Below, piece by piece: positions 6,220 through 35,195 of a DNA stretch of 64,000 nt. Numbering within the stretch: the stretch's first letter is position 1; each line of letters opens with the position of its first letter. Source of the DNA: Candidatus Poribacteria bacterium. GTDB taxonomy: Bacteria; Poribacteria; WGA-4E; WGA-3G. Location: positions 224,001 through 288,000 of the forward strand of contig OZ219752.1 of assembly GCA_964291315.2 (NCBI GenBank), given 5' to 3'. The translations under genes and the position numbers were made by a program. The notes beneath the pieces were generated by a model, which did no database searches, was not told the DNA's origin, and was given only the letters and a program-made list of their open reading frames with translations.

Positions 6220-6304
6220 GGTGGGATGGCTGAGTGGACGAAAGCGGCGGTCTTGAAAACCGTTATGGCGTAAGCCATCGTGGGTTCGAATCCTACTCCC
6301 ACCG
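6220..6304 (+). tRNA. tRNA-Ser(TGA)
   Basis: GGTGGGA/TCCCACC acceptor stem, anticodon loop CT-TGA-AA, long variable arm, GTTCGAATC. Confidence 0.95.
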
Positions 6305-6311
6305 CTGTTAA

Positions 6312-6396
6312 GGAGAGGTGCAGGAGTGGTTGAACTGGACTGCCTGCTAAGCAGTTATGGCGTAAGCCATCGTGGGTTCGAATCCCACCCTCTCCG
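6312..6396 (+). tRNA. tRNA-Ser(GCT)
   Basis: GGAGAGG/CCTCTCC, ACTGC-CT-GCT-AA-GCAGT, long variable arm. Confidence 0.95.
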
Positions 6397-6407
6397 TTCT
6401 ACAATAT

Positions 6408-6481
6408 GCGCCTGTAGCTCAGTGGATTAGAGCATCTGACTACGGATCAGAAGGCCGGGGGTTCGAATCCTCTCAGGCGCT
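6408..6481 (+). tRNA. tRNA-Arg(ACG)
   Basis: GCGCCTG/CAGGCGC, TCTGA-CT-ACG-GA-TCAGA. Confidence 0.95.
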
Positions 6482-6505
6482 TTCAAATCTTATATTGGAC
6501 AAAAT

Positions 6506-6961
6506 TTGGATCGCGATGTCTTTTGGATGCAGCAAGCAGTTGAATTAGCGCAACAAGCGGCAGAAAAGAGCGAAGTTCCAGTCGCCGCAATTCTAATTAA
6601 AGAGGACAGTTTAATTGCGCAAGCTCACAATTTGCGTGAGTCCTGTGGCAGCCCCATCGCTCATGCAGAAATATTGGTGATGCAAGCGGCGGCTGAAAAA
6701 ATTAGGAATTGGCGTTTTACTGACACAACTTTGTATGTGACCTTGGAGCCTTGCCCGATGTGTGCTGGAGCTATTGTGTTAGCTCGAATTCCAAAGGTTG
6801 TTTATGCTGCAGCAGATCCGAAATCCGGGGCAGCCGGAACGCTCTATAACATTCTACAAGATGACCGTTTGAATCATCGGGTTGAATTAGTGAGTGGTGT
6901 ATTAGCAGAGGAGAGTAGTGCACTTCTGAAGTCCTTCTTCCAAAAACGTCGCCGGAGATAA
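6506..6961 (+). CDS. tadA: tRNA adenosine(34) deaminase
   Basis: HAE and TLEPCPMCAGA zinc motifs, DPKSGAAG, FFQKRR end. Confidence 0.95.
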   Translation: MDRDVFWMQQAVELAQQAAEKSEVPVAAILIKEDSLIAQAHNLRESCGSPIAHAEILVMQAAAEKIRNWRFTDTTLYVTLEPCPMCAGAIVLARIPKVVYAAADPKSGAAGTLYNILQDDRLNHRVELVSGVLAEESSALLKSFFQKRRRR

Positions 6962-7103
6962 AAATGAATAATAGGCGGAAGCGGGAGTCTAAACGAGGTT
7001 TACTGTGCTGCCAGGACATCTCATCATAGCACCTCTAGTAATCTCATAAATCATGTTTCAGATATTCATCGGTGGGCGACAATCGAAGGTCCATAGTCAA
7101 TGC

Positions 7104-7188
7104 GGAGAGATGCAGGAGTGGTTGAACTGGACAGTCTCGAAAACTGTTGTGGCGCAAGTCACCGTGGGTTCGAATCCCACTCTCTCCG
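7104..7188 (+). tRNA. tRNA-Ser(CGA)
   Basis: GGAGAGA/TCTCTCC, ACAGT-CT-CGA-AA-ACTGT, long variable arm. Confidence 0.95.
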
Positions 7189-7264
7189 TTTTTAAGTATT
7201 TGTTACGTGAATCGTAGTGTTCGAAGAGTTAATTGCTGTCAGATGATTAAGTCTTTCAGTCTGT

Positions 7265-7337
7265 GGGGCAGTAGCTCAGTTGGGAGAGCGCATCCCTCGC
7301 ACGGATGAGGTCACGGGTTCAAATCCCGTCTGCTCCA
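7265..7337 (+). tRNA. tRNA-Ala(CGC)
   Basis: GGGGCAG/CTGCTCC with G3:U70, CATCC-CT-CGC-AC-GGATG. Confidence 0.95.
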
Positions 7338-7476
7338 TTTTTCTTTAGATCGTCTATTTCATGTTGTTTAAGAAGTGTTGATAAGAAGTGATTTGTAGCG
7401 TGAAACTTACCGCAATTCTCATAAGTCGTACTAATCGCTGTCCGCCTCTGTGCTTCATGAGATAAATATATTTTAT

Positions 7477-7568
7477 GGAGAGATGCAGGAGTTGGTTGAA
7501 CTGGCATGACTGGAAATCATGTGTGCTGTTTTGCAGTACCGTGGGTTCGAATCCCACTCTCTCCGCCA
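7477..7568 (+). tRNA. tRNA-Ser(GGA)
   Basis: GGAGAGA/TCTCTCC-G-CCA, CATGA-CT-GGA-AA-TCATG. Confidence 0.95.
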
Positions 7569-23380: not shown

Positions 23381-24100
23381 ATGAACAATAAGACAAATTG
23401 GTTGAAAACTGTGCCATTTTTGCAAAGCCGACAGTCTGAGAATCCTAGAGAGATAAGAGATGCAGATCTTTCTCGAAGGTCGGTCTTGCAAATCTTAGGC
23501 GGCATTTGTCTCTCATTCACACCGTTGAGCTGCTCAAAGGTCCCGGATTTCATCAAAGACACTTTTCAACCTGAGATGATTGTCCCGGTGTTTGACCCAG
23601 ATGCTGTTATTATGCCACAGACAGGTACTGTCGTTTATGTAAAGAATGGTGTGACAGCAATGGCACTTCCTCTCAACAACGTGAAGGCGGTTGATGCGTT
23701 TGCTATCTTTATCTATAACGGCACAGACTATTGGATTTCCTTCAAGAAAAAGGATTGCCAGATGCTTGATGGTACGGGAAACGTGACCAAACCAATAGAC
23801 AAGTCTCAAGAATCCTTTTACCTGAAAAAGAATTTCACACCTGAACTCCCCCCTGAATTTGCAGCTGAAATATTCCGATGGGATAAGACTATCAGGATAC
23901 AGGGCGATCCTGCAATACTGCCCAGAGAAGATATTGAGAAAACAACGGTGATGCCACGGCAGCATACAAGATTTTTCCTCTACTTCCGCAAACGCAGCAT
24001 CAACTATAGCAGCCTGCGAATTATCGTTCCAAGAGTCACGAGCGATTTCAATGAACAGCAAACCACGTTCGTTTTCAGATTTAAGGTGCAACGGGGTTAA
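23381..24100 (+). CDS. Hypothetical (Tat-)lipoprotein
   Basis: SRRSVLQILGG twin-arginine-like segment followed by PLSC; RBS GGAG. Confidence 0.6.
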   Translation: MNNKTNWLKTVPFLQSRQSENPREIRDADLSRRSVLQILGGICLSFTPLSCSKVPDFIKDTFQPEMIVPVFDPDAVIMPQTGTVVYVKNGVTAMALPLNNVKAVDAFAIFIYNGTDYWISFKKKDCQMLDGTGNVTKPIDKSQESFYLKKNFTPELPPEFAAEIFRWDKTIRIQGDPAILPREDIEKTTVMPRQHTRFFLYFRKRSINYSSLRIIVPRVTSDFNEQQTTFVFRFKVQRG

Positions 24101-25151
24101 GCTGACGCGTATTAAACAGAAACCTCAAGTATCACTGCTGGTGCTCCTGCCATGTGCTAAAAATCTGAGTTACCTCCTTCTCGCCTTCTGTTTGAGTTGT
24201 ACCTTGCCTAAAACTGAAAAAAAAGAATCTCCGCCGCTACCTCGGTCGGCATTGATTGAAATCCTCCCCGCGAATCGTGAGCGGAAGGCAGCGCCTATAG
24301 TGGGTATCAGTTACGTTGAAACAATCGGTAGTGTTGGACAGGCGGTTGGTCAATTTCGGGCGCCATTGGGGCTCACTATGGATGAACAGCAGCGTCTCTA
24401 TGTCGCTGATGCAGGAAACAATCGCATCCAAGTGATTGGCCCCACTGGCGGTTTTATCACTGAATTTGGAGGCCGTGGATGGCAGACAGGCGAATTTGAT
24501 CACCCGACAGACGTGGCATTGGGCTTCCAAGGGAGCTACCGTCTCTATATCGCTGATACGGGCAACGATCGGGTCCAATTCTGCAATTTTGTTGATCAGA
24601 TTTTTTATCCGCTCCCTGAAATTGTAGACGACATTTTGCTTGATCGACCTGAAGGTATTGGTATCGGGCGAAATGGGCAGCTTTATGTTGTTGATACAGG
24701 GAACCATCGCTGGATCGAGTTCAATGCGACAGGGGTTCCCGTCGGCGCACATGGAAGCTTTGGGAGGGGCAGAGAGCAGCTCTGGAATCCAACCGACCTC
24801 GGTGTTGATTCACATGGAAACGTTTATGTTGTTGATGCTGGCAACCATCTCATCAAAAAATACGACTTCAGCGGCAACCCTATGAGTGCATGGGGCGGAG
24901 AAGGAGACGAGCTTGGACAGTTGCGGGATCCTAAGTGCATCGCTCTTGACGAATGGAATTATCTCTACGTGACAGATAGCGGGAATCGACGTGTCCAAGT
25001 CTTTTCACCCGATGGAAAGAGCATGATAGAATTTAGCACTTCTGGACTCATACTGCCAGCCGGTATTGCAGTATCGAAGACCGGGCGCGTTTTTGTGAGC
25101 GATGCTGAAGCAAATGATATAAAGGTATTCCAAGTTTTTCGTAAAAAGTAG
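24051..25151 (+). CDS. NHL-repeat beta-propeller lipoprotein (true start probably downstream)
   Basis: Six NHL repeats (LYVADAGNNRIQ, IADTGNDRVQ, VTDSGNRRVQVF); lipobox-like CLSC. Confidence 0.85.
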   Translation: MNSKPRSFSDLRCNGVKLTRIKQKPQVSLLVLLPCAKNLSYLLLAFCLSCTLPKTEKKESPPLPRSALIEILPANRERKAAPIVGISYVETIGSVGQAVGQFRAPLGLTMDEQQRLYVADAGNNRIQVIGPTGGFITEFGGRGWQTGEFDHPTDVALGFQGSYRLYIADTGNDRVQFCNFVDQIFYPLPEIVDDILLDRPEGIGIGRNGQLYVVDTGNHRWIEFNATGVPVGAHGSFGRGREQLWNPTDLGVDSHGNVYVVDAGNHLIKKYDFSGNPMSAWGGEGDELGQLRDPKCIALDEWNYLYVTDSGNRRVQVFSPDGKSMIEFSTSGLILPAGIAVSKTGRVFVSDAEANDIKVFQVFRKK

Positions 25152-25239: not shown

Positions 25240-28200
25240 GTGAAATTGACCGAAAACCGGGCCCGCTCATTACGGAGAGGCGTGAAACGAAGTGGAACGG
25301 TGATCAGATTCAATAGACTAAAAATCATTTTTCTTACCTTCTGCTTGTGCGTCCTGCCACGTTCAGGAAATACAGCGCAAGGATCCCCGGAGAATAAAAC
25401 AGGTGTTCTCGAACTACCTACCTTTTCTGTCCTTCAAAAATCTGAATCCTTTGAAGTAAAAACGGGCACGCTTGAGTTTACGGTGAAGTATCCGCCAATT
25501 CTCCCGAACAGTGAACAGATAACAGCGAAAAGCGGGAAAGTTCTCGTGCGAGGTGTAGATTACCAAATCGATGCCTATTTGGGCAAAATCACTTTAAGTG
25601 AGCCGGATACTACTCTTGAAGCAGATCTACCCTATAGACTGACGATAAATTACTGGACGTTGCCCTTTGCGATAAAACAGGTTTACAAACGCGATCTTTA
25701 CGGTATAGGGGTCGGCTTGCAGCAAGAGGGCAATCAGCAGACAGGAATTAACGATCAACAACAAGGTTTTCTTGCGGATAATCGGCAGCCGGTAGCAGGC
25801 AACCAGTTAGAAGTTTCTGGCAGTCAGACGTTTGGAATTTCACTTGGTAGTGGCCGCGGTGTGACACCGAATCAGGAGCTGCGGATCAACGTAGAAGGAA
25901 AAGCCTCTGAGAATATTAGTGTATTGGCAATGCTATCCGACCAAGATTTACCTATCCAGCCTGAAGGCACAACAGAAAATATACAAGACATCGATCAGAA
26001 ACTAATTCGTATCAGACATCCAAATATGAGAGGGACATTGGGAGATTTTGAAGGATCGCTCGGGCCGTCAGAATTTATCTTTTTCCCTCGTGCCTTAGAA
26101 GGTGTGCAAGTTGGAGGTAATTTTAATTGGATAGACTTCCATCTTATTCCGAGCGCAATTCCGAAAGGACAGTCTACTAGCTTAGTTCTCCGGGGCGAAG
26201 AAGGACGTAGCGAATATCGACTGACAGTTGATGGGCAATATGTCATTGTGAAAGCCGGCAGCGAAATCGTCTGGCTGAACGGTGAAAGAATGAGACGTGG
26301 CAAAAATAACGATTATGTTATCCGTGAATATGGAGACCCTATTGTCGAATTCAATAGCAAGCACCTGATAACAAGCAACGACGTGATTCGCATTGACTTT
26401 GAATACATTCCCGAGGAGCATGCTTATCAACAAAATCTTTACGGTCTCAGTAGCATCTTCACGTTACCTGGCGATTGGTTTTCTTTCGGGGCCTCCTATG
26501 CGGTTGAGACAGACCTGAGTCAGCCGGAGCAGGCTTTAATCACTTTCGCAGAGGAGGATTTAAAAGCGCTCCGCCAAAATATACTCGATCCCGATGGAGA
26601 CGGAGCAGCCCTCATAGCCCCTCAAAAACATAGTGTATGGGGACTCGAAAGCCGCCTGAATATCACTGAAGAAGCTCATATTCAAGGGGAACTCGCTTAT
26701 AGTGCTGTTGATAAAAACACCTATTCTACGGCTGATCGCAAAGAGGTGAGTCGGGCATGGAAACTCATCGGTTATGCAGACTGGGACTTTGCGGCCTGGA
26801 CAGACAAATTTCGTCCTAAGTTAATAGCGAACCTCGATGTTCGCTCAATGGACGCTGACTTTGTACCTGTTGGTGCTTCAAGCACCAATCGCACCCGTTC
26901 CCGGTATGAGACACAATACGCTAAAGAGGGGTTTGATGATGCGTTTCTGCTGGATATCGCCGGTTCCTCGCGAGCTCCGAGAGATGAGCAGACGATGAAC
27001 TTCGACATCCGAGTACTTCCAATCAACTGGCTCGAAGTTGATGCCGGTGTCGGTAGGAGCCAAGCGAAAGATTCTCGGCTTAATAGTCAATCAGCAACAA
27101 CGCGTGATAATTACAATTGGGGTATAAATTTTAATCGCAGTCGACAGCCGGCGGTCAGTCGCTTGTCAGCCTCGGTGCCCGGAGAAAACGTTTTTGAACG
27201 TCGCAGCGGGGTCCCGGCAAAGGACACTCGACGACCAACAACTTTAAGAAAGTGGATCCCGAACCTGCGCTGGGACGACTATAGAAGTAGCTCGCGTGTG
27301 GAGAGTATCAATTCGACCTCAAGACAATTACAGCAAAAGTCTCGGCAAGAAGGCAATCTCTCTTATCCTATTGGTCCCTTCAGGATTATGGGTACACTCG
27401 GCAAAGTGGAATCAAACGAGGCGCTCAACGCGGCACTTAACCGGAAGCGGAACCGCACAATCGGGCGCGTCACTCTCGCGAAAGATTGGGCATCCTTCGA
27501 TACCCGTTATGAGCTTGAAGAGGCTTTTAAAAAAGAACCGTTGCTTACTCTCGATACTGAACCTATCGGTTTGTCCGATTGGCAACTAAGCACTACCGCT
27601 CGAACGTGGAAAGTTGGGGCTTTCTCACAACAAGAGTCTTTCCTCAAAGGTGTTGTCAATCTAACAGCGAACGTCACACGTCGCGTGTTGAAGAGCCACA
27701 ACGCTCTCGGGGCCAAGACGACAACCCAACTCGCTGATATTAGTCTTCAGTTGACCCCCTTAAGCCGCGCAATTGACATGGAAATCACCTACGAATTGGA
27801 CAAAAAACTGACTAGCCAACGCCGTGAAGTCTACACTAACATTCATCCTCACACTGGTTTCCCAATCCGACCGGGTGAAGGATATTACGTAAAATTGGAC
27901 GACCTGCACTACATAGAAGATCCAGAAGAAGGCACCTATATCAAAATCTACCAAAACGTCGGTGATAAACCGACGACAGCAGTAGATGCAGAGTTTCGGT
28001 TGCGTTTTCAACCTCGTCAATTTTTTGCACGCCGTGCCCGTGAACGTCAAAAACAGCAGCATGCTACGATGCAGAGTCGTGATAGCTTACGTCCAAAGCC
28101 TGTGCCCGACCTACCAAGCATCAACGACCAACAATCGAAAGTTTCTGATAGTCAACAATCATCCCGCCTAGAACGGTTTCTGAGTGCGCTAAGAGGCCAA

Positions 28201-29001
28201 ACTCGATTCTGGGTGACCGAGGAACAGGAGGTAGAGGATGCGGTGTCGCTGTATCTGCTTCAAAACTTACAAGGTTCAGATACGCTTTTTGGACGGTTGA
28301 ATCAACACCACAGGCTTGAATTTTCACCCTCACCCGCTTTCAGCTGTGAATTCAACCTTCGTACTGGTGAAACACTCAATCGCCGGGTCAATAACCAAGA
28401 ACGTCAGAGGCACCATCAAACGTGGGATCTTACTGTGTCTGTTAATCCGACTCAACGAATGGCTGTCAATGTGAACTGGGAGCAAGGTTGGGAAACCGAG
28501 AAATATAGTCAATTCGATGTTGACAGACTTAATCAAGGGGCCGGTACTCTGGCAAGTGAAACGGCGTCTTTGCCAATATCTATCTCCGACCTACGCCAAT
28601 TTGAACGGATTACTGAATTGGGACTCCGATACGAGCTGAGCAAATCGGTACGATGGAGCGGCACTGCCGGATACAGATGGACAGCTGACGAAGAGCAGTT
28701 AGATGAGGAACCCGAAGCTAGAACGCGTACCCTTTTCTATGAGAACCGTGTTGTATATAGTCTTGTCGGTAAAGGCCGCATTGACATCAATTACAAACTC
28801 GGCTACGGTGAAAGTCGCGGCAGTATACCGTTTGCACAATATACTTTCTATGAAGGCATCAGTCATGAAGTTCGAAAAACTGCTGATTACAGGTTGCGGA
28901 GATTCACCGATCTCTTGTTTCGACTCAATTACCGCTTGCTTTCAACCAAACAGCGCAAGCCTGAGCACCGCTTAGAAATGAAGGTGAGTGCAGAACTTTA
29001 G
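25240..29001 (+). CDS. Large putative outer-membrane/secreted protein
   Basis: 1253-aa ORF, signal-like N-terminus, amphipathic beta-strand C-terminal half; LSDQDLPIQPEGTT resembles, from recall, conserved FCB-group hypothetical OM proteins. Confidence 0.65.
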   Translation: MKLTENRARSLRRGVKRSGTVIRFNRLKIIFLTFCLCVLPRSGNTAQGSPENKTGVLELPTFSVLQKSESFEVKTGTLEFTVKYPPILPNSEQITAKSGKVLVRGVDYQIDAYLGKITLSEPDTTLEADLPYRLTINYWTLPFAIKQVYKRDLYGIGVGLQQEGNQQTGINDQQQGFLADNRQPVAGNQLEVSGSQTFGISLGSGRGVTPNQELRINVEGKASENISVLAMLSDQDLPIQPEGTTENIQDIDQKLIRIRHPNMRGTLGDFEGSLGPSEFIFFPRALEGVQVGGNFNWIDFHLIPSAIPKGQSTSLVLRGEEGRSEYRLTVDGQYVIVKAGSEIVWLNGERMRRGKNNDYVIREYGDPIVEFNSKHLITSNDVIRIDFEYIPEEHAYQQNLYGLSSIFTLPGDWFSFGASYAVETDLSQPEQALITFAEEDLKALRQNILDPDGDGAALIAPQKHSVWGLESRLNITEEAHIQGELAYSAVDKNTYSTADRKEVSRAWKLIGYADWDFAAWTDKFRPKLIANLDVRSMDADFVPVGASSTNRTRSRYETQYAKEGFDDAFLLDIAGSSRAPRDEQTMNFDIRVLPINWLEVDAGVGRSQAKDSRLNSQSATTRDNYNWGINFNRSRQPAVSRLSASVPGENVFERRSGVPAKDTRRPTTLRKWIPNLRWDDYRSSSRVESINSTSRQLQQKSRQEGNLSYPIGPFRIMGTLGKVESNEALNAALNRKRNRTIGRVTLAKDWASFDTRYELEEAFKKEPLLTLDTEPIGLSDWQLSTTARTWKVGAFSQQESFLKGVVNLTANVTRRVLKSHNALGAKTTTQLADISLQLTPLSRAIDMEITYELDKKLTSQRREVYTNIHPHTGFPIRPGEGYYVKLDDLHYIEDPEEGTYIKIYQNVGDKPTTAVDAEFRLRFQPRQFFARRARERQKQQHATMQSRDSLRPKPVPDLPSINDQQSKVSDSQQSSRLERFLSALRGQTRFWVTEEQEVEDAVSLYLLQNLQGSDTLFGRLNQHHRLEFSPSPAFSCEFNLRTGETLNRRVNNQERQRHHQTWDLTVSVNPTQRMAVNVNWEQGWETEKYSQFDVDRLNQGAGTLASETASLPISISDLRQFERITELGLRYELSKSVRWSGTAGYRWTADEEQLDEEPEARTRTLFYENRVVYSLVGKGRIDINYKLGYGESRGSIPFAQYTFYEGISHEVRKTADYRLRRFTDLLFRLNYRLLSTKQRKPEHRLEMKVSAEL

Positions 29002-29074: not shown

Positions 29075-29103
29075 TGTTAGCGCGTTTTGTCGGCGCGCTA
29101 ACA
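29075..29103. terminator. Hairpin between convergent genes
   Basis: TGTTAGCGCG-9 nt-CGCGCTAACA perfect 10-bp stem. Confidence 0.6.
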
Positions 29104-29114
29104 AGATACATTAA

Positions 29115-31127
29115 CTAATCTTCGTCTGGAGGCACGATATCATAAATGAACCATATACCTTCCACTTTTCGCATTTTGACAGATGCCTCTGGAGGAGATA
29201 ACATCTGTGGCAACTTCAACCGGAAATGGAATTCATCCCCTACATGTTGATGGTTCAATACCTCCACCTCGCTGAACGCCAGACTGAGCTGCTCGCGCGA
29301 CTCTTCTGGGATGTCCTGACTTGCAAGCTCTTCCATGGCACGCCCTATTACCATTGGGTGCAGCGCATCTGAGTCAAGATTCTTAAGTGCTGTCACGAAA
29401 GCGTTCATCAAATCTTCTGCAGATTTGTATGAATGGGTTGGAGCTTCTTCTTTCCAATCCTGCATCTGCCCCGGTTCAACAGAGATTTCTGCCAGAAAAC
29501 CGTTGATGTTCCGTTGCTCGTTGAACCAGCTACCGGTAACCCCCAACTTAAAGGACTGCCCCTGCGGAAAATAATACTCAATGACGCGTCTATCTTCAGA
29601 TGGAACGTCCCATGCAGAGATAAGCGCCCCTTGTGGCGCTCCTTTCGTAGGGAGTTTGCTATTGCCATCATACAGATCAAATGACCCCATGGCTCCGGCA
29701 TCTCCAACTTGGAGTGAGATAGTGAGCCAACCGCCGTTTTCAAATGCTGTCGCATCAATCTCGACAACAGTATAGTCTTGATAGCCGGGTTCTGGAGTCC
29801 GAAAGGTACTCAAGACTTTCTGCTCCGGATTGTCGTTGGTAAGTACGAGTTTCAAAACGTTGGTCTTTGGGTCATCTGCTTTAAGAACAGAATCCCAATC
29901 GATGGACAAAGGTACCGAGGTATCTTCACGGAGTCCCGGGCGTTTGCCCGCTAAAGATCTCTTAAGAAACATTCTGTAGTGTTCATTGGGCTGCAGCCTG
30001 CTTAGTTCATTGGTCGGCAGCCTGCCCATCAGTTCAAGCTTTGGTGAGATAACCATCGAATCTGACGGGGAGTGCTCCTTCCAACCTTTCATGATCACTT
30101 GGATCAGTGGGTGCGTTTTGTCAAACTGCTCGAACCCCTGATGAAATCTCTTTTCAACGTATGCTTGCTGTTCGGGTGTGCGTTCTAATGTGACATTCGA
30201 CACCCAGATGTTGATGAAATTTTCGTTCAAGAATTCAATAATTCGGTTATTGGAGAGGACACCTGCCCTCAGGCTTTTGCCGCTCCCTCAGCACGCCTCA
30301 TCCGCAAGGGGACCGTCTAAAGAGATGGCGTGAATAGGTTTCACTTGCGTCTGTGCCATCTCCAATGCCTCTTCCGGGGATGTCCAATTAATCTGTTGTG
30401 ACTTGTAGAACCGTTGTATGAGTAGACGTTCAGCTGCTTCTTGGGTAATAGATTCTACGTATTCGACATCTGGCAGGAAATCTCTCGTCCCGGCACGGAG
30501 TGCCATCTCGGAGCAAAAACCTGAATCGGTGCCGAAGTAATTTTTGTCTTTCTCTTTCTCGCGTTTAACATCAAAGTTTACTATGCCTCCGGGGACGTAC
30601 ATCTCGAAAAAAACGACTTTCTCTTCGACTCGGTCAATCACAAGATGTCCTGTAAATTGCGAAGGAGTAAACCGTCCATCTTTTAGTTTGAACTCCGCAT
30701 GAATGCGAAACACAATGTCAGCGAATCTGTCGTTGTAAGCACGCAGGCATGCCCATAAGCCAGATGAGTCTCCCGAGAGCTGTAAGTTTGGATTTGGGTG
30801 CAGTTGCCTGAGCAGGGTCATCACGCCTTCTTCTTTAACTTGCCAGAGTTCGCCAACCGCAATTGTCTTATCAGGCAGAAAATCTTGGAAAACCGAGGCT
30901 GGATACTGCTTTTCTGGTTCAGCAACGCGCAAGTTTGCCAAGGTCTCCCAATTCACGTGGAAATTGAACACGGTATGCTCGATCGGTGCAATGGACCCCT
31001 TCACTAATACCTCTGACGTGCTGTCAAGCTCAAGTTTGATTGTGTTATTAGCTGCCGAGTGGTTATCGGCATTCAGTTGTCCGTTCATCATAATCAAGGT
31101 CAGAAAACCGAAGGCTAAGATTTTCAT
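29115..31127 (-). CDS. Selenoprotein N (SELENON)-like protein, ~670 aa, with in-frame UGA (predicted Sec280) at 30288-30290
   Basis: ORFs 30288-31244 and 29115-30230 share a frame; read-through gives DGPLADEAC-U-GSGKSLRAGVLSNNRIIEFLNENFINIW; also ACLRAY..IVFRIHAEFKL and TPSQFTGHL; AGGAGG RBS and signal peptide at 31127. Confidence 0.88.
30252..30287 (-). promoter_or_regulatory. Candidate bacterial SECIS element
   Basis: 3' of UGA: GAGGGC-AGGU-GUCCUC hairpin (30255-30270) with its loop ~23 nt from the UGA; lower GGAG/CUCC pairing possible. Confidence 0.65.
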
Positions 31128-31149
31128 TTTCAAGCCTCCTTGTAAAACG

Positions 31150-31244
31150 TTCTCGTTAAGGATCAGTGTTGGAATAATACCACGAATACCACTTCTATCG
31201 ATAGATAAAACAGTTCCTCTTATTTTCTTTCGATCATTGGTCAT
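31150..31244 (-). pseudogene. N-terminal remnant of a patatin-like phospholipase
   Basis: TVLSIDRSGIRGIIPTLIL resembles patatin ILSIDGGGIRGII; own AGGAGA RBS; in frame with the SelN-like gene. Confidence 0.5.
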
Positions 31245-32092: not shown

Positions 32093-33442
32093 ATGATTCA
32101 AACAGTTTATCAAGAGGCGTATCGTCCGCAGTTCCATTTCACTGCTAAAACCAACTGGATTAACGATCCAAACGGTCTTGTTTACTATAAAGGGGAGTAT
32201 CATCTCTTCTTTCAACACAATCCGGTCGGCATCGATTGGGGAAATATGACATGGGGGCATGCTATTAGTCGCGACCTCGTCCATTGGAAGCAACTTCCAC
32301 ATGCCCTGCATCCTGATGAACTCGGCACAATCTTCTCCGGTTCGGCGGTTGTGGATTGGAAAAACACTGGCGGTTTCCAAACCGGTGATGAGGCAGTTCT
32401 CGTTAACTTTTATACGTCTGCCGGCAGCCACGCCCCCAAAGAATTGCCCTTTACGCAGAGCATTGCTTATAGTAACGACCGCGGGCGAAGTTGGACAAAA
32501 TACCAAAACAATCCTGTGCTTGACCATATTGTCGGCAGCAATCGTGACCCCAAGGTGATATGGCATGAACCGACGCAAAAATGGGTGATGGCGCTCTACC
32601 TCGATCAAAATGATTACGTGCTATTCGGGTCGAGAAACCTTAAGGCATGGACTCCACTGTCCGAGGTTCAAATTCCGGATACAGAGTGCCCTGATATCTT
32701 TGAACTTGCGGTTGATGCCGATCCAAATACTAGGAAATGGGTTTTCTGGGGAGCGGCAGGGCAATATTATGTGGGTGACTTTGACGGAACGACCTTCACG
32801 CCGGAAGGTGATGCTCGGTGCGCCGACTACGGTGCTAATTTTTATGCGGCTCAAACGTGGAGCGATGTTCCGGAGTCGGATGGCAGATGTCTCCAAATTG
32901 CTTGGATGAATGGCAGCAAACCACCGGACATGCCCTTTAATCAGCAGATGAGCTTCCCATGTGAGCTAACCCTTCGGACAACTTCAGATGGTATCCGACT
33001 CCATCGGGAACCGGTAGCGGAGATTGAAAATATCCACACCTATACGCACACATGGAGCAACATTGCCCTGAAGCCGAGTGAGAACCTGCTTTCTGGTTTA
33101 ACAGGCGAACTCTTCGATATCCGCGCTGAGATCGTACTAAACGATGCTGCAGCTGTTGGGTTCAACATTCGTGGAGAGGATGTTCGCTACGACGACGTGG
33201 CGACGCAACAACTTACATTTCTTGAAAGAAGCGGCCCACTTACACCGAAGAATGGAAAAATCAGTTTGCAGATTTTAGTCGATCGCATCTCTCTTGAGGC
33301 GTTCGGCAATGCTGGAGAGCTCTCTATGACCTCCTATTTCCTACCCGATCTGAACAACGCAGACATAGGGATTTATGCAGATGGGGGTACAGCAAGGCTG
33401 GTATCGCTAAAAGTACATGAATTAAGGTCATCGTGGGTGTAA
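32093..33442 (+). CDS. Glycoside hydrolase family 32 (levanase/beta-fructosidase)
   Basis: WINDPNG, WGHAIS.DL..W, FSGSAV, RDP, ECPD. Confidence 0.95.
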   Translation: MIQTVYQEAYRPQFHFTAKTNWINDPNGLVYYKGEYHLFFQHNPVGIDWGNMTWGHAISRDLVHWKQLPHALHPDELGTIFSGSAVVDWKNTGGFQTGDEAVLVNFYTSAGSHAPKELPFTQSIAYSNDRGRSWTKYQNNPVLDHIVGSNRDPKVIWHEPTQKWVMALYLDQNDYVLFGSRNLKAWTPLSEVQIPDTECPDIFELAVDADPNTRKWVFWGAAGQYYVGDFDGTTFTPEGDARCADYGANFYAAQTWSDVPESDGRCLQIAWMNGSKPPDMPFNQQMSFPCELTLRTTSDGIRLHREPVAEIENIHTYTHTWSNIALKPSENLLSGLTGELFDIRAEIVLNDAAAVGFNIRGEDVRYDDVATQQLTFLERSGPLTPKNGKISLQILVDRISLEAFGNAGELSMTSYFLPDLNNADIGIYADGGTARLVSLKVHELRSSWV

Positions 33443-34112: not shown

Positions 34113-35195
34113 ATGTCACCCTTGCTCAAGTGTAAAAAAGCGATCGTTATTATTATCACTGTTTTCGTTTTTTTTTGGATACAAATAGAGGCATTTGCGG
34201 GTGCGGACTGGAAACGGATAACTGAGATGCCGACTGGGAGAAGCGGGTTCGCGGCGGCCGTCGTAGAGAATAAGGTGTATATCATCGGTGGAACACTCTT
34301 TAAAAATCCAGAAGGCCCCTATGGGAGTTCAACCCTTGAGGTGTATGATCCACAAAATCACACTTGGCGGCGCCTGATAGATATGCCAACCCCCCGTCAT
34401 GGTGCGAGATCCGCGGTTGTCAACGGCATCATCTATGTTTTTGGCGGGTATAGTTCAAAAGATAGATTAATTAAGAATTGGAAATTGCCGGTTCACACAG
34501 AGGCATACGATCCTCAAACTGATACTTGGGTCCAGAGAAAGGACATGCTGGTTTCTCGTATCAACTTTCGTCTCGGTGTGTTCGCTGACAAAGTCTATCT
34601 CATCGGCGGGACAACAGGCTTCGGTGAGGCCCATGAACAACGGATGGACCGAGTGGATGTCTATGATCCAAGCACCGATTCCTGGGCGAGGGGAACGAAC
34701 ATGCCGACCCGGCGGGATCCTCTGGCTGTGTCCGTTGTCAACAATCGAATGTATGTCATCGGTGGGCGCGGATGGCCTCAGGCTGTTGATGGTGGCCCTG
34801 TCCTGAAGGTGATTGAGGCATATAAACCGGTAGGTCGCCGGTGGACGCAGAAGCGGGATATGTTAGATGTAAAAAACGGGTTCGAGACGGTTGTTGTTAA
34901 GGATGAGATCTATCTGATTGGGGGGAGCTCTCAAGGTCGTTTTTTATCGACAGTGGATGTGTATAGTCCAGAGAAAGAGGCATGGCGAGAGAGTCCAGAA
35001 CTGCCAATACTTCTGAGTCCGTATGGTGCAGCGACGGTAAACGGAAGGATTTATGTTTTCGGTGGATATAATAGAGAACGTGGGCATATTCCAGATGTTC
35101 TGGTCTTTGATACGCGCTCTCGTGCCGTCGAAGCAAAGCACAAGCTCACTACACGCTGGGGGGAACTCAAAGGCAAACGTCCCGCAAAACCATAA
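34113..35195 (+). CDS. Secreted Kelch-repeat protein
   Basis: Six Kelch repeats (YIIGG..EVYDP..W..MPTPR); signal peptide; C-terminal AVEAKHKLTTRWGELK. Confidence 0.92.
   Translation: MSPLLKCKKAIVIIITVFVFFWIQIEAFAGADWKRITEMPTGRSGFAAAVVENKVYIIGGTLFKNPEGPYGSSTLEVYDPQNHTWRRLIDMPTPRHGARSAVVNGIIYVFGGYSSKDRLIKNWKLPVHTEAYDPQTDTWVQRKDMLVSRINFRLGVFADKVYLIGGTTGFGEAHEQRMDRVDVYDPSTDSWARGTNMPTRRDPLAVSVVNNRMYVIGGRGWPQAVDGGPVLKVIEAYKPVGRRWTQKRDMLDVKNGFETVVVKDEIYLIGGSSQGRFLSTVDVYSPEKEAWRESPELPILLSPYGAATVNGRIYVFGGYNRERGHIPDVLVFDTRSRAVEAKHKLTTRWGELKGKRPAKP

Follow-up and report, generated by a model that had tools for sequence, protein, structure and literature searches.

Mammalian thioredoxin reductase (TrxR) carries a C-terminal Gly-Cys-Sec-Gly redox centre that acts as a selenenylsulfide switch (Sec, selenocysteine, U). 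In bacteria, by the accepted distance and loop rules, the selenocysteine insertion sequence (SECIS) is a stem-loop within the coding sequence soon after the UGA, with a G in its apical loop. Selenoprotein N (SELENON, SelN), which resides in the endoplasmic reticulum (ER) lumen and is mutated in SEPN1-related myopathy, is treated by the field as an animal protein. In the available text of one source it is described as having a thioredoxin (Trx) domain that harbours the Sec (PMC10650576), and a January 2026 review places its orthologs in vertebrates and some invertebrates, with no word beginning 'bacteri' or 'prokaryot' in the part of the text that was accessible (PMC12839072). SelN, Poribacteria and sponge are absent from the accessible main text of a 2026 review of the prokaryotic selenoproteome (PMC13188914), as is the term 'selenoprotein N' from the accessible part of the paper on the GOS (Global Ocean Sampling) selenoproteome. 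Here we describe a SELENON-type gene from a Candidatus Poribacteria bacterium. It lies on the minus strand at 29115..31127 of a stretch of 64,000 nucleotides (the window, G000:C3:224001-288000) in a genome of 4.40 Mb, which comprises four contigs and is 95.2% complete (G000).

In the open reading frame (ORF) listing the gene appears as two minus-strand pieces: a 318-residue ORF at 30288..31244, whose C-terminus ...LDGPLADEAC is followed by TGA, and a 371-residue ORF at 29115..30230 with a TTG start. Both are in one frame (30290-30230 = 60), and the gap of 57 nt or 19 codons between them (30231-30287) is free of stops. Translated with TGA as U, the frame has no stop between 31244 and the TAG at 29117..29115 and reads ...LDGPLADEAC-U-GSGKSLRAGVLSNNRIIEFLNENFINIW..., with FRIHAEFKL and TPSQFTGH upstream. 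A preliminary description of this DNA had proposed one selenoprotein gene of about 670 codons, split at an in-frame TGA and bearing these two motifs, and the frame, the open codons, the length and the motifs were all found as it had stated. The locus is a single real, mis-annotated selenoprotein gene. That its product is a Sec-containing SelN homolog appears highly probable from the sequence evidence given below; we also consider likely the reading as a whole, in which one gene encodes an exported bacterial selenoprotein of the SELENON family with a reductase-type Cys-Sec pair.

We take the ATG at 31127..31125, which gives 670 codons including U, as the most probable start, because a Shine-Dalgarno-like AAGGAGG (31135..31141) ends 7 nt upstream of it, orthologs begin with MK(I/T)L... 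and the N-terminal pieces of homologs measure 277-282 residues. The whole coding sequence then spans 29115..31127 with its TAG stop (29115-29117), in line with the alignment and with orthologs of 661-680 residues in relatives. The TGA at 30288..30290 would encode Sec280 (residue 319 when counted from 31244), directly after the TGC codon of Cys279 at 30291..30293. Contigs of four public runs from one study were compared with the window. In X2 and X4, which are other samples of that study, the first base of the start codon differs and the codon is GTG; as this is still a start codon, it fits 31127 as the true start. The TGA site was readable in X1 and X2, and its letters were identical in the contigs of both. 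The preliminary description had named TGC or TGG at this position as an outcome that would tell against the gene, and these contigs keep TGA.

Sequence comparison argues decisively for homology to animal SELENON across the stop. A phmmer search against 5.8 billion proteins returned named animal Selenoprotein N entries at E 1.5e-13 and 1.6e-11 (overall E 1e-11 to 1e-15), together with EF-hand-bearing animal-type fragments that end in ...DDQSC and resume with SGRTLRE. The animal-type sequences P0034 and P0184 carry SGRTLRE.VL....IL.LLNE.F.STW, and FRIHAEFQL and P.QFTGH are present in database sequences; this agrees with the animal motifs as quoted in the preliminary description. In BLASTP, the window protein aligned with two animal sequences at 1e-22 (26% identity over 310 residues) and 5e-25 (29% over 242 residues), and both alignments span the Sec column. 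When profiles of 13 bacterial core sequences and five animal sequences were compared with hhalign, the probability was 100 and E 1.5e-56 over 364 aligned columns, covering positions 11-389 of 392 in the bacterial profile and 96-543 of 548 in the animal one. A break of the homology at the stop had been named beforehand as a ground for abandoning the claim; in the BLASTP and hhalign alignments the homology continues past it. The N-terminal part of the animal profile (~95 columns, membrane anchor and EF-hand) had no bacterial counterpart.

The window protein and animal SELENON are 26-29% identical and share the features by which the family is recognized: homology over the luminal core, a UGA after Cys in (S/A)-C-U-G at the homologous column and a Sec-bearing Trx-type domain. 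Homology covers the beta domain, in which FRIHAEF and P.QFTGH occur, and the Trx-like domain up to its last helix. Sec has an identical position in both, preceded by Cys and followed by G-S-G-(K/R)-.-L-R; the UGA of the window gene falls within the conserved motif ...D-E-(A/S)-C-U-G-S-G-K.... Both proteins would work in an oxidising compartment, the ER lumen in one case and presumably the cell envelope in the other. The differences lie outside this core. The window protein has neither the type II anchor nor the luminal EF-hand of the animal protein: Pfam found no EF-hand in it and its N-terminus is signal-peptide-like, whereas the animal matches carry PF13405/PF13499. Anchor and EF-hand define the animal architecture, not the homologous core. 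The window protein has instead a cleavable-looking signal peptide, an extra beta-sandwich and an NTF2-like tail, and the signal for its Sec would be a hairpin that follows the UGA within the coding sequence, whereas that of the animal protein is a SECIS in the 3' untranslated region. Within the SELENON family it represents a prokaryotic variant in which recoding is of the bacterial type and domains have been added, and which shows a striking lineage-specific expansion in relatives.

The genome encodes a complete Sec machinery, all four components of which exceed the curated cut-offs. The tRNA-Sec scored 78.1 bits (cut-off 47), was called as SeC with anticodon tca by ARAGORN and directly adjoins selB (328.8 bits); selA scored 588.9 bits and selD, which contains one TGA, 357.3 bits. 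All of selA, selB, selC and selD, whose presence had been put forward as a check on the proposed selenoprotein, are there. The selD gene (G000:C4:721940-722863, locus L019) is itself a selenoprotein gene, reading ...VKCAGUASK..., and has a hairpin GCUCC-AGG-GGAGC 15 nt past its UGA.

The TGA is conserved among relatives. Matches were found in 35 of 41 genomes (40 relatives and G000), with at least one internal TGA in all but four of the matches listed across these genomes; the closest named relatives were Candidatus Poribacteria metagenome-assembled genomes (MAGs) or uncultured bacteria at 24 of 24 loci. Sites located through the downstream LNENFIN motif in 36 Poribacteria loci gave 54 distinct peptide contexts, every one of which reads C-U, and all 69 distinct Poribacteria DNA sites collected by the D-E-x-C-U motif are TGC-TGA. 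A more distant metagenome group, 35-57% identical to the query profile and characterized by ...LFG.LDDESC, has TGA after the Cys in 24 of 24 loci, and the frame goes on with GSGK.LRAGPLS where the contig allows. The C-TGA arrangement is, judged from the sequences, far beyond chance, because the same C-TGA-G column recurs in 69/69 related and 24/24 distant sites. In the exhaustive HMMER search with residues 60-440, 371 cluster representatives were found at E<=0.001 and 252 at E<=1e-10; among the best 150, 100 terminate in Cys exactly at the Cys of the query and 15 start just past the site, the footprint of gene callers halting at a recoded UGA. The public collection holds 1755 clusters of N-terminal pieces, and in annotation the family is systematically split at the Cys.

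Homologs with Cys in place of Sec, as expected for a SelB-dependent selenoprotein, were also identified: the column reads DESCCGSGK in P0042, P0045, P0047 and P0053 and DEACCATGK in P0058. Both UGA and Cys, either of which the preliminary description had suggested looking for in homologs, occur at the site. Other residues at the Sec column are Trp (P0016) and Ala (P0054) and, in a Poribacteria paralog group of 557 residues, Gly. We considered whether the Gly forms were products of translation with genetic code 25 and rejected this, the DNA having real GGA or GGC codons. In five such paralogs (L058-L061 and L063, from G018, G001, G013, G022 and G004) the Cys codon is TGT in four and the hairpin is mostly kept, and their counterpart in G006 (L062) retains TGA. 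The group looks like a recent loss of Sec through a single base change.

Downstream of the TGA we identified a SECIS-like hairpin, GAGGGC-AGGU-GUCCUC (30255..30270), that starts 20 nt past the U of the UGA (+20..+35) and has 6 bp and an AGGU loop. It came out of the minimum free energy (MFE) fold, and RNAalifold recovers the same helix. In the 69 Poribacteria sequences 97.3% of the cells in this helix are paired, compared to 47.6-81.4% with slid partners. The codons under the hairpin are near-fixed over these sites (Arg AGG 67/69, Ala GCA 62, Val GTC 56, Leu CTC 69/69), and the Cys codon before the UGA is TGC in 69/69; adjacent synonymous sites vary, with GAT/GAC at 43:26, TTG/CTG at 35:33 and TCC/TCT at 30:29. 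In the distant metagenome group a 7-bp hairpin, GAG(A/G)GCG-GGUC-CGCUCUC, is found at the same position in 22 of the 23 readable loci and is, relative to the Poribacteria form, a set of compensated changes. The predicted element corresponds to what is expected of a bacterial, SelB-dependent SECIS, an in-frame stem-loop with an apical G. Given the hairpin of selD described above, the same kind of small AGG-loop hairpin serves a certain selenoprotein gene in this genome.

The read-through protein had no matches in Pfam or in NCBIfam, and no chain of the Protein Data Bank (PDB) matched it by sequence at E<=1. Its architecture was derived from an AlphaFold 2 (AF2) model of the full length, with a mean predicted local distance difference test score (pLDDT) of 84.0, and from VIA alignment of Foldseek candidates, which supplied the structural Z scores. 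The N-terminus, MKILAFGFLTLIMMNGQLNA (residues 1-20, 31068..31127), resembles a signal peptide by eye, with MK, a hydrophobic stretch and LNA, and AF2 places a helix of low pLDDT at residues 2-16. Secretion of the protein, as proposed in the preliminary description, is thus predicted only from these two observations. A SelN-specific beta domain follows (residues ~26-228, 30444..31052), which contains FRIHAEF and TPSQFTGH, is homologous to animal SELENON and gave a pLDDT of 95.6 when folded alone; Arg and His of FR.HAEF and the residues of P.QF.G are invariant in it. Foldseek found no match for it at E<=0.001, and the best Z in a VIA-wide comparison with 48,161 chains was 5.9, to generic beta-barrels, so that it has no solved relative in this set. 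The Trx-like domain (residues ~229-396, 29940..30443) has a strand at 265-270 and the Cys-Sec pair at 279-280, just before a helix at 281-290. A disordered linker at residues 401-423 leads to a beta-sandwich (residues ~426-552, 29472..29852) and an NTF2-like C-terminal domain (residues ~566-668, 29124..29432).

The Trx-like domain (model residues 241-396) is closest in fold to DsbH (2ju5, Z 13.8), ERp19 (TXNDC12; 1sen, 12.2) and AGR3 (3ph9, 12.2), followed by a Thioredox_DsbH protein (7tkv, 11.7) and a UAS domain (2dlx, 10.3). It has in common with the DsbH, ERp19, AGR2-AGR3 and UAS proteins the fold and the placement of the redox residues at the start of the first helix. It differs from them by an adjacent Cys-Sec in place of CxxC or CxxS and by the 200-residue beta domain that precedes the fold. 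Since the fold is similar and the CxxC or CxxS motif is missing, as is a match to any Pfam thioredoxin family, we describe the domain as resembling this group and do not file it as a member. The beta-sandwich resembles PliG, PPC and GOLD-type domains at Z ~9-10.7: the best score was 10.7 for PliG (4dzg), the Tk-SP jelly roll and GOLD domains gave 9.0-9.4, and jelly-roll, GOLD and collagen-binding domains as a whole 8.6-9.4. For the NTF2-like tail the matches were moderate, Z 8.4 with YchJ (9vxg) and 8.2 with the NTF2 domain of RsgI9 (7sjy). The extra C-terminal domains of the preliminary description, a beta-rich one and an NTF2-like tail, were recovered in these comparisons at Z 9-10.7 and ~8, respectively.

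Across the phylum, 117 of 151 sampled genomes matched the N-domain profile at E<=1e-10, with 97/99 in family f1, 9/10 in f2, 10/26 in f3 and 0/15 in f4-f9. The family also occurs on metagenome contigs outside Poribacteria, and the proteins of the distant metagenome group (~380-420 residues) consist of a signal peptide and the core only. The genome studied here has a single copy, whereas its same-genus relatives have 7-14 or more Sec copies each, often in tandem arrays. Copies were counted with a strict 48-nt pattern of Sec site plus hairpin and a reversed control: there was one match in G000, 14 in G002, 10 each in G008 and G019 and seven in G018, and none in any of the five reversed controls.

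The paralogs vary in architecture. In many of them (L036, L038, L042 and other loci) two beta-sandwich domains take the place of the NTF2-like tail. Among the 12 long-type copies with this tail in loci L022-L035, which include the window gene, nine terminate at TGA (L024-L031 and L035 among them); the window gene terminates at TAG. P0018 is a double module, in which the C-terminal part of a first SelN module and a further N-domain with the terminus ...DDESC share a single ORF; two Sec residues are implied. P0054, from the half of the family with ...DDQSC, has a bacterial lipoprotein signal. P0137, P0413, P0427 and P0433, all from relatives, are proteins of 576 residues in which an extracytoplasmic function (ECF) sigma-70 part (PF07638/PF04542/PF04545/PF08281) is connected by one hydrophobic helix to a SelN-like module whose last residues ahead of the stop are ...DDESC; these fusions have the appearance of sigma factors tethered to the membrane, with an outside sensor that contains Sec. 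In P0024-P0026 the same sigma part is joined to the beta-sandwich domain alone. Finally, P0078, of 1101 residues and encoded on a 314-kb contig of a relative, has a SelN-like module at its C-terminus, and its N-terminal 850 residues look unrelated, which adds a further fusion partner.

As to the function, we regard a reductase-type envelope oxidoreductase as roughly an even call, by analogy with the systems named above. In the mechanism that we propose, SelB-GTP-Sec-tRNA would bind the hairpin on the translating ribosome and insert Sec to give a 670-residue precursor, which the N-terminal signal peptide would export to the envelope. There, in a Trx fold like that of DsbH and ERp19, Cys279-Sec280 would sit at the N-terminus of the first helix, where ordinary thiol-disulfide oxidoreductases have their CxxC. 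The pair would most likely cycle between selenolate/thiol and selenenylsulfide, like the GCUG end of TrxR, and its probable substrates for reduction in the cell envelope would be cysteines oxidised to sulfenic acids or disulfides, or else peroxides. Its re-reduction could proceed through a DsbD-type membrane electron carrier, of which the genome encodes one (G000:C4:827424-828059). The N-terminal beta domain, the beta-sandwich and the NTF2-like tail may bind substrate or ligand. We take Cys-Sec to be the redox centre because of its position in the fold and because of homology, and the location in the envelope follows from the signal peptide as judged by eye. This reductase function would parallel what SELENON has been proposed to do in the ER lumen, as given in the available text of PMC10650576.

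The comparison with TrxR concerns an adjacent Cys-Sec followed by Gly. In TrxR the motif is on the flexible C-terminal tail of a flavoenzyme, whereas here it is inside a Trx fold and there is no flavin domain. With the known bacterial selenoproteins of the Trx fold (Prx-like, DsbA-like, SelW-like and others) the window protein shares SelB-type recoding, a post-UGA hairpin, Cys homologs and a thiol-oxidoreductase fold; it differs from them in belonging to another family, one with no NCBIfam model.

A serious rival concerns the role only and leaves gene and Sec as they are: the protein may chiefly be a redox sensor or a peroxidase and not a protein-thiol reductase. The sigma-factor fusions are the reason for taking it seriously, since in P0137, P0413, P0427 and P0433 the tethering of the module to ECF sigma-70 by one transmembrane helix matches how an extracytoplasmic sensor is laid out. 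The available text of PMC10650576 describes animal SELENON as a sensor-coupled redox protein, and the NTF2-like tail resembles YchJ, a regulator that senses reactive oxygen species, at a Z of 8.4 that is however within the range of common arrangements. The window protein itself has no sigma or membrane-anchor part. Sensing and catalysis are not distinguished by the present evidence, and we consider a chiefly sensing or peroxidase role possible, at well under even chances.

The remaining alternatives concern the TGA. If it were a true stop, the locus would encode a 279-residue protein ending in Cys and a separate 371-residue protein starting from the TTG at 30230. Gene callers do yield these pieces: the public collection stores the 318-residue N-terminal piece as a protein of its own (P0185), and the ends and starts among the best 150 representatives fall at the same place. 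In addition, the genome uses TGA as an ordinary stop: among the window's 26 ORFs with at least 300 residues, the counts are nine for TGA, ten for TAA and seven for TAG. Bacteria are moreover expected to terminate at a Sec UGA to some extent. A stop at this place would, however, cut the Trx fold between strand 1 and helix 1, and nowhere is the family more conserved than in the 19 open codons that separate the pieces. The Cys and Gly homologs are uninterrupted single ORFs, and TGA has been kept in 69/69 and 24/24 sites although TAA or TAG would do equally as a stop. We therefore hold a true stop to be very unlikely.

We find it highly improbable, too, that the UGA is read by a route other than Sec insertion, through near-cognate Trp or Cys or a suppressor, with an ordinary residue inserted. 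The complete Sec machinery with a tRNA-Sec adjoining selB, the hairpin at SECIS distance with its frozen synonymous sites and the animal homolog, an established selenoprotein at this very column, all speak against such a route, although the fold evidently accommodates ordinary residues at the column, given the members with Trp (P0016), Gly, Ala (P0054) or Cys there. A pseudogene or an assembly error at the TGA is practically negligible as an explanation: a fresh nonsense mutation would look like a single in-frame stop, but here dozens of independent assemblies, as well as paralogs with only 50-60% protein identity, share this codon at this column, the contigs of two runs share the letters and both halves are under protein-level conservation.

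Several observations weigh against the reading that we prefer, that of an exported Sec-containing reductase of the SELENON family. As for the hairpin, covariation within Poribacteria is thin, with double changes in two pairs and three cells; Rfam gave no match at E<=10 for 30100-30400; and the MFE fold of 71 nt was not better than shuffled sequences (z -1.16). Five Gly paralogs, which have no need of a SECIS, retain most of the hairpin, and its conservation may therefore stem in part from the protein sequence or from the recency of Sec loss. The signal peptide was judged by eye alone, and many paralogs of relatives, separated by gaps of 4 nt in tandem arrays, apparently have no room for one. 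A predicted template modelling score (pTM) of 0.61 for the full-length model makes the arrangement of the domains uncertain. The function is assigned by analogy only, and the gene neighbours give no redox partner. Among the RNA runs that were looked up, none of those listed holds the gene.

The relation of the family to the animal protein was examined with an IQ-TREE analysis of 49 N-domains, eight animal-type and 41 others, from which the mis-modelled animal sequences P0028, P0029 and P0034 were excluded. The animal-type rows group as a single clade whose branch measures 2.19 changes per column (100 in the Shimodaira-Hasegawa-like approximate likelihood-ratio test, SH-aLRT), and this clade attaches at the unresolved base of the 41 other rows. 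A Poribacteria clade of nine rows and two Cys forms had 96% support. In FastTree the animal rows fell within the DDQSC half of the family. A tree with Poribacteria and animals as one group was not rejected by the approximately unbiased (AU) test (p 0.50), which neither supports nor excludes a transfer between sponge host and symbiont. The low identity and the long branch, on the other hand, argue against a recent transfer event. The host-symbiont transfer raised in the preliminary description hence finds no support in the long-branched animal clade, the 26-29% identity and the spread of the family beyond Poribacteria, and the AU value does not exclude it. According to the accessible part of PMC3473315, a SelN of its own, with a SECIS of the eukaryotic kind, is present in the sponge Amphimedon.

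We tentatively propose, with a little less than even confidence, that SELENON did not arise as an animal or eukaryotic novelty but descends, as a form adapted to the ER, from a large and as yet undescribed family of exported Cys-Sec oxidoreductases in prokaryotes. In sponge-associated Poribacteria this family would have multiplied to at least 7-14 Sec copies per genome, possibly to more than 20 members, including double-Sec copies and copies with an ECF sigma sensor. If so, Poribacteria would be among the most selenium-committed bacterial lineages by virtue of one family, and the myopathy protein would gain tractable bacterial models. From the counts of strict Sec-site matches in the four relatives, the selenium demand of Poribacteria has probably been much underestimated. 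The chemistry of SELENON is poorly understood, and none of the solved structures matches the window protein by sequence; the small soluble homologs of ~380-420 residues and the natural Cys versions are possible models for structure, substrates and disease-site residues.

The preliminary description had also stated that bacterial SelN-like sequences had been mentioned before. Such mentions could be traced only to automatic database names: IMG names P0052 'selenoprotein N', and the Atlas has labelled as 'Putative selenoprotein n 1 (Fragment)' a cluster that includes Poribacteria members. No paper describing a bacterial SelN was found in the literature, where supplementary family lists may hold the family under another name.

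The surroundings of the gene, with sugar kinases, NHL and Kelch repeat proteins, GH32 and a 1253-residue ORF of no family, give no functional hint. Within the window, an NHL-repeat protein lies at 24051-25151, the 1253-residue ORF without a Pfam family, which is convergent with the SelN-like gene, at 25240-29001, a GH32 glycoside hydrolase at 32093-33442 and a protein of six Kelch repeats at 34113-35195. Such eukaryote-like repeat proteins are common in sponge symbionts. A promoter-like site upstream of the gene (31201..31174) is at chance level. Just past the stop codon, at 29077..29101 on the minus strand, an inverted repeat TTAGCGCG...CGCGCTAA was seen in the sequence, a possible terminator stem without a T-run that does not appear in the terminator scan output. 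Finally, six tRNA genes are clustered at 6220-7568: four tRNA-Ser (tga, gct, cga and gga), one Arg-acg and one Ala-cgc. The tRNA-Ser genes are sub-threshold matches of the tRNA-Sec model.

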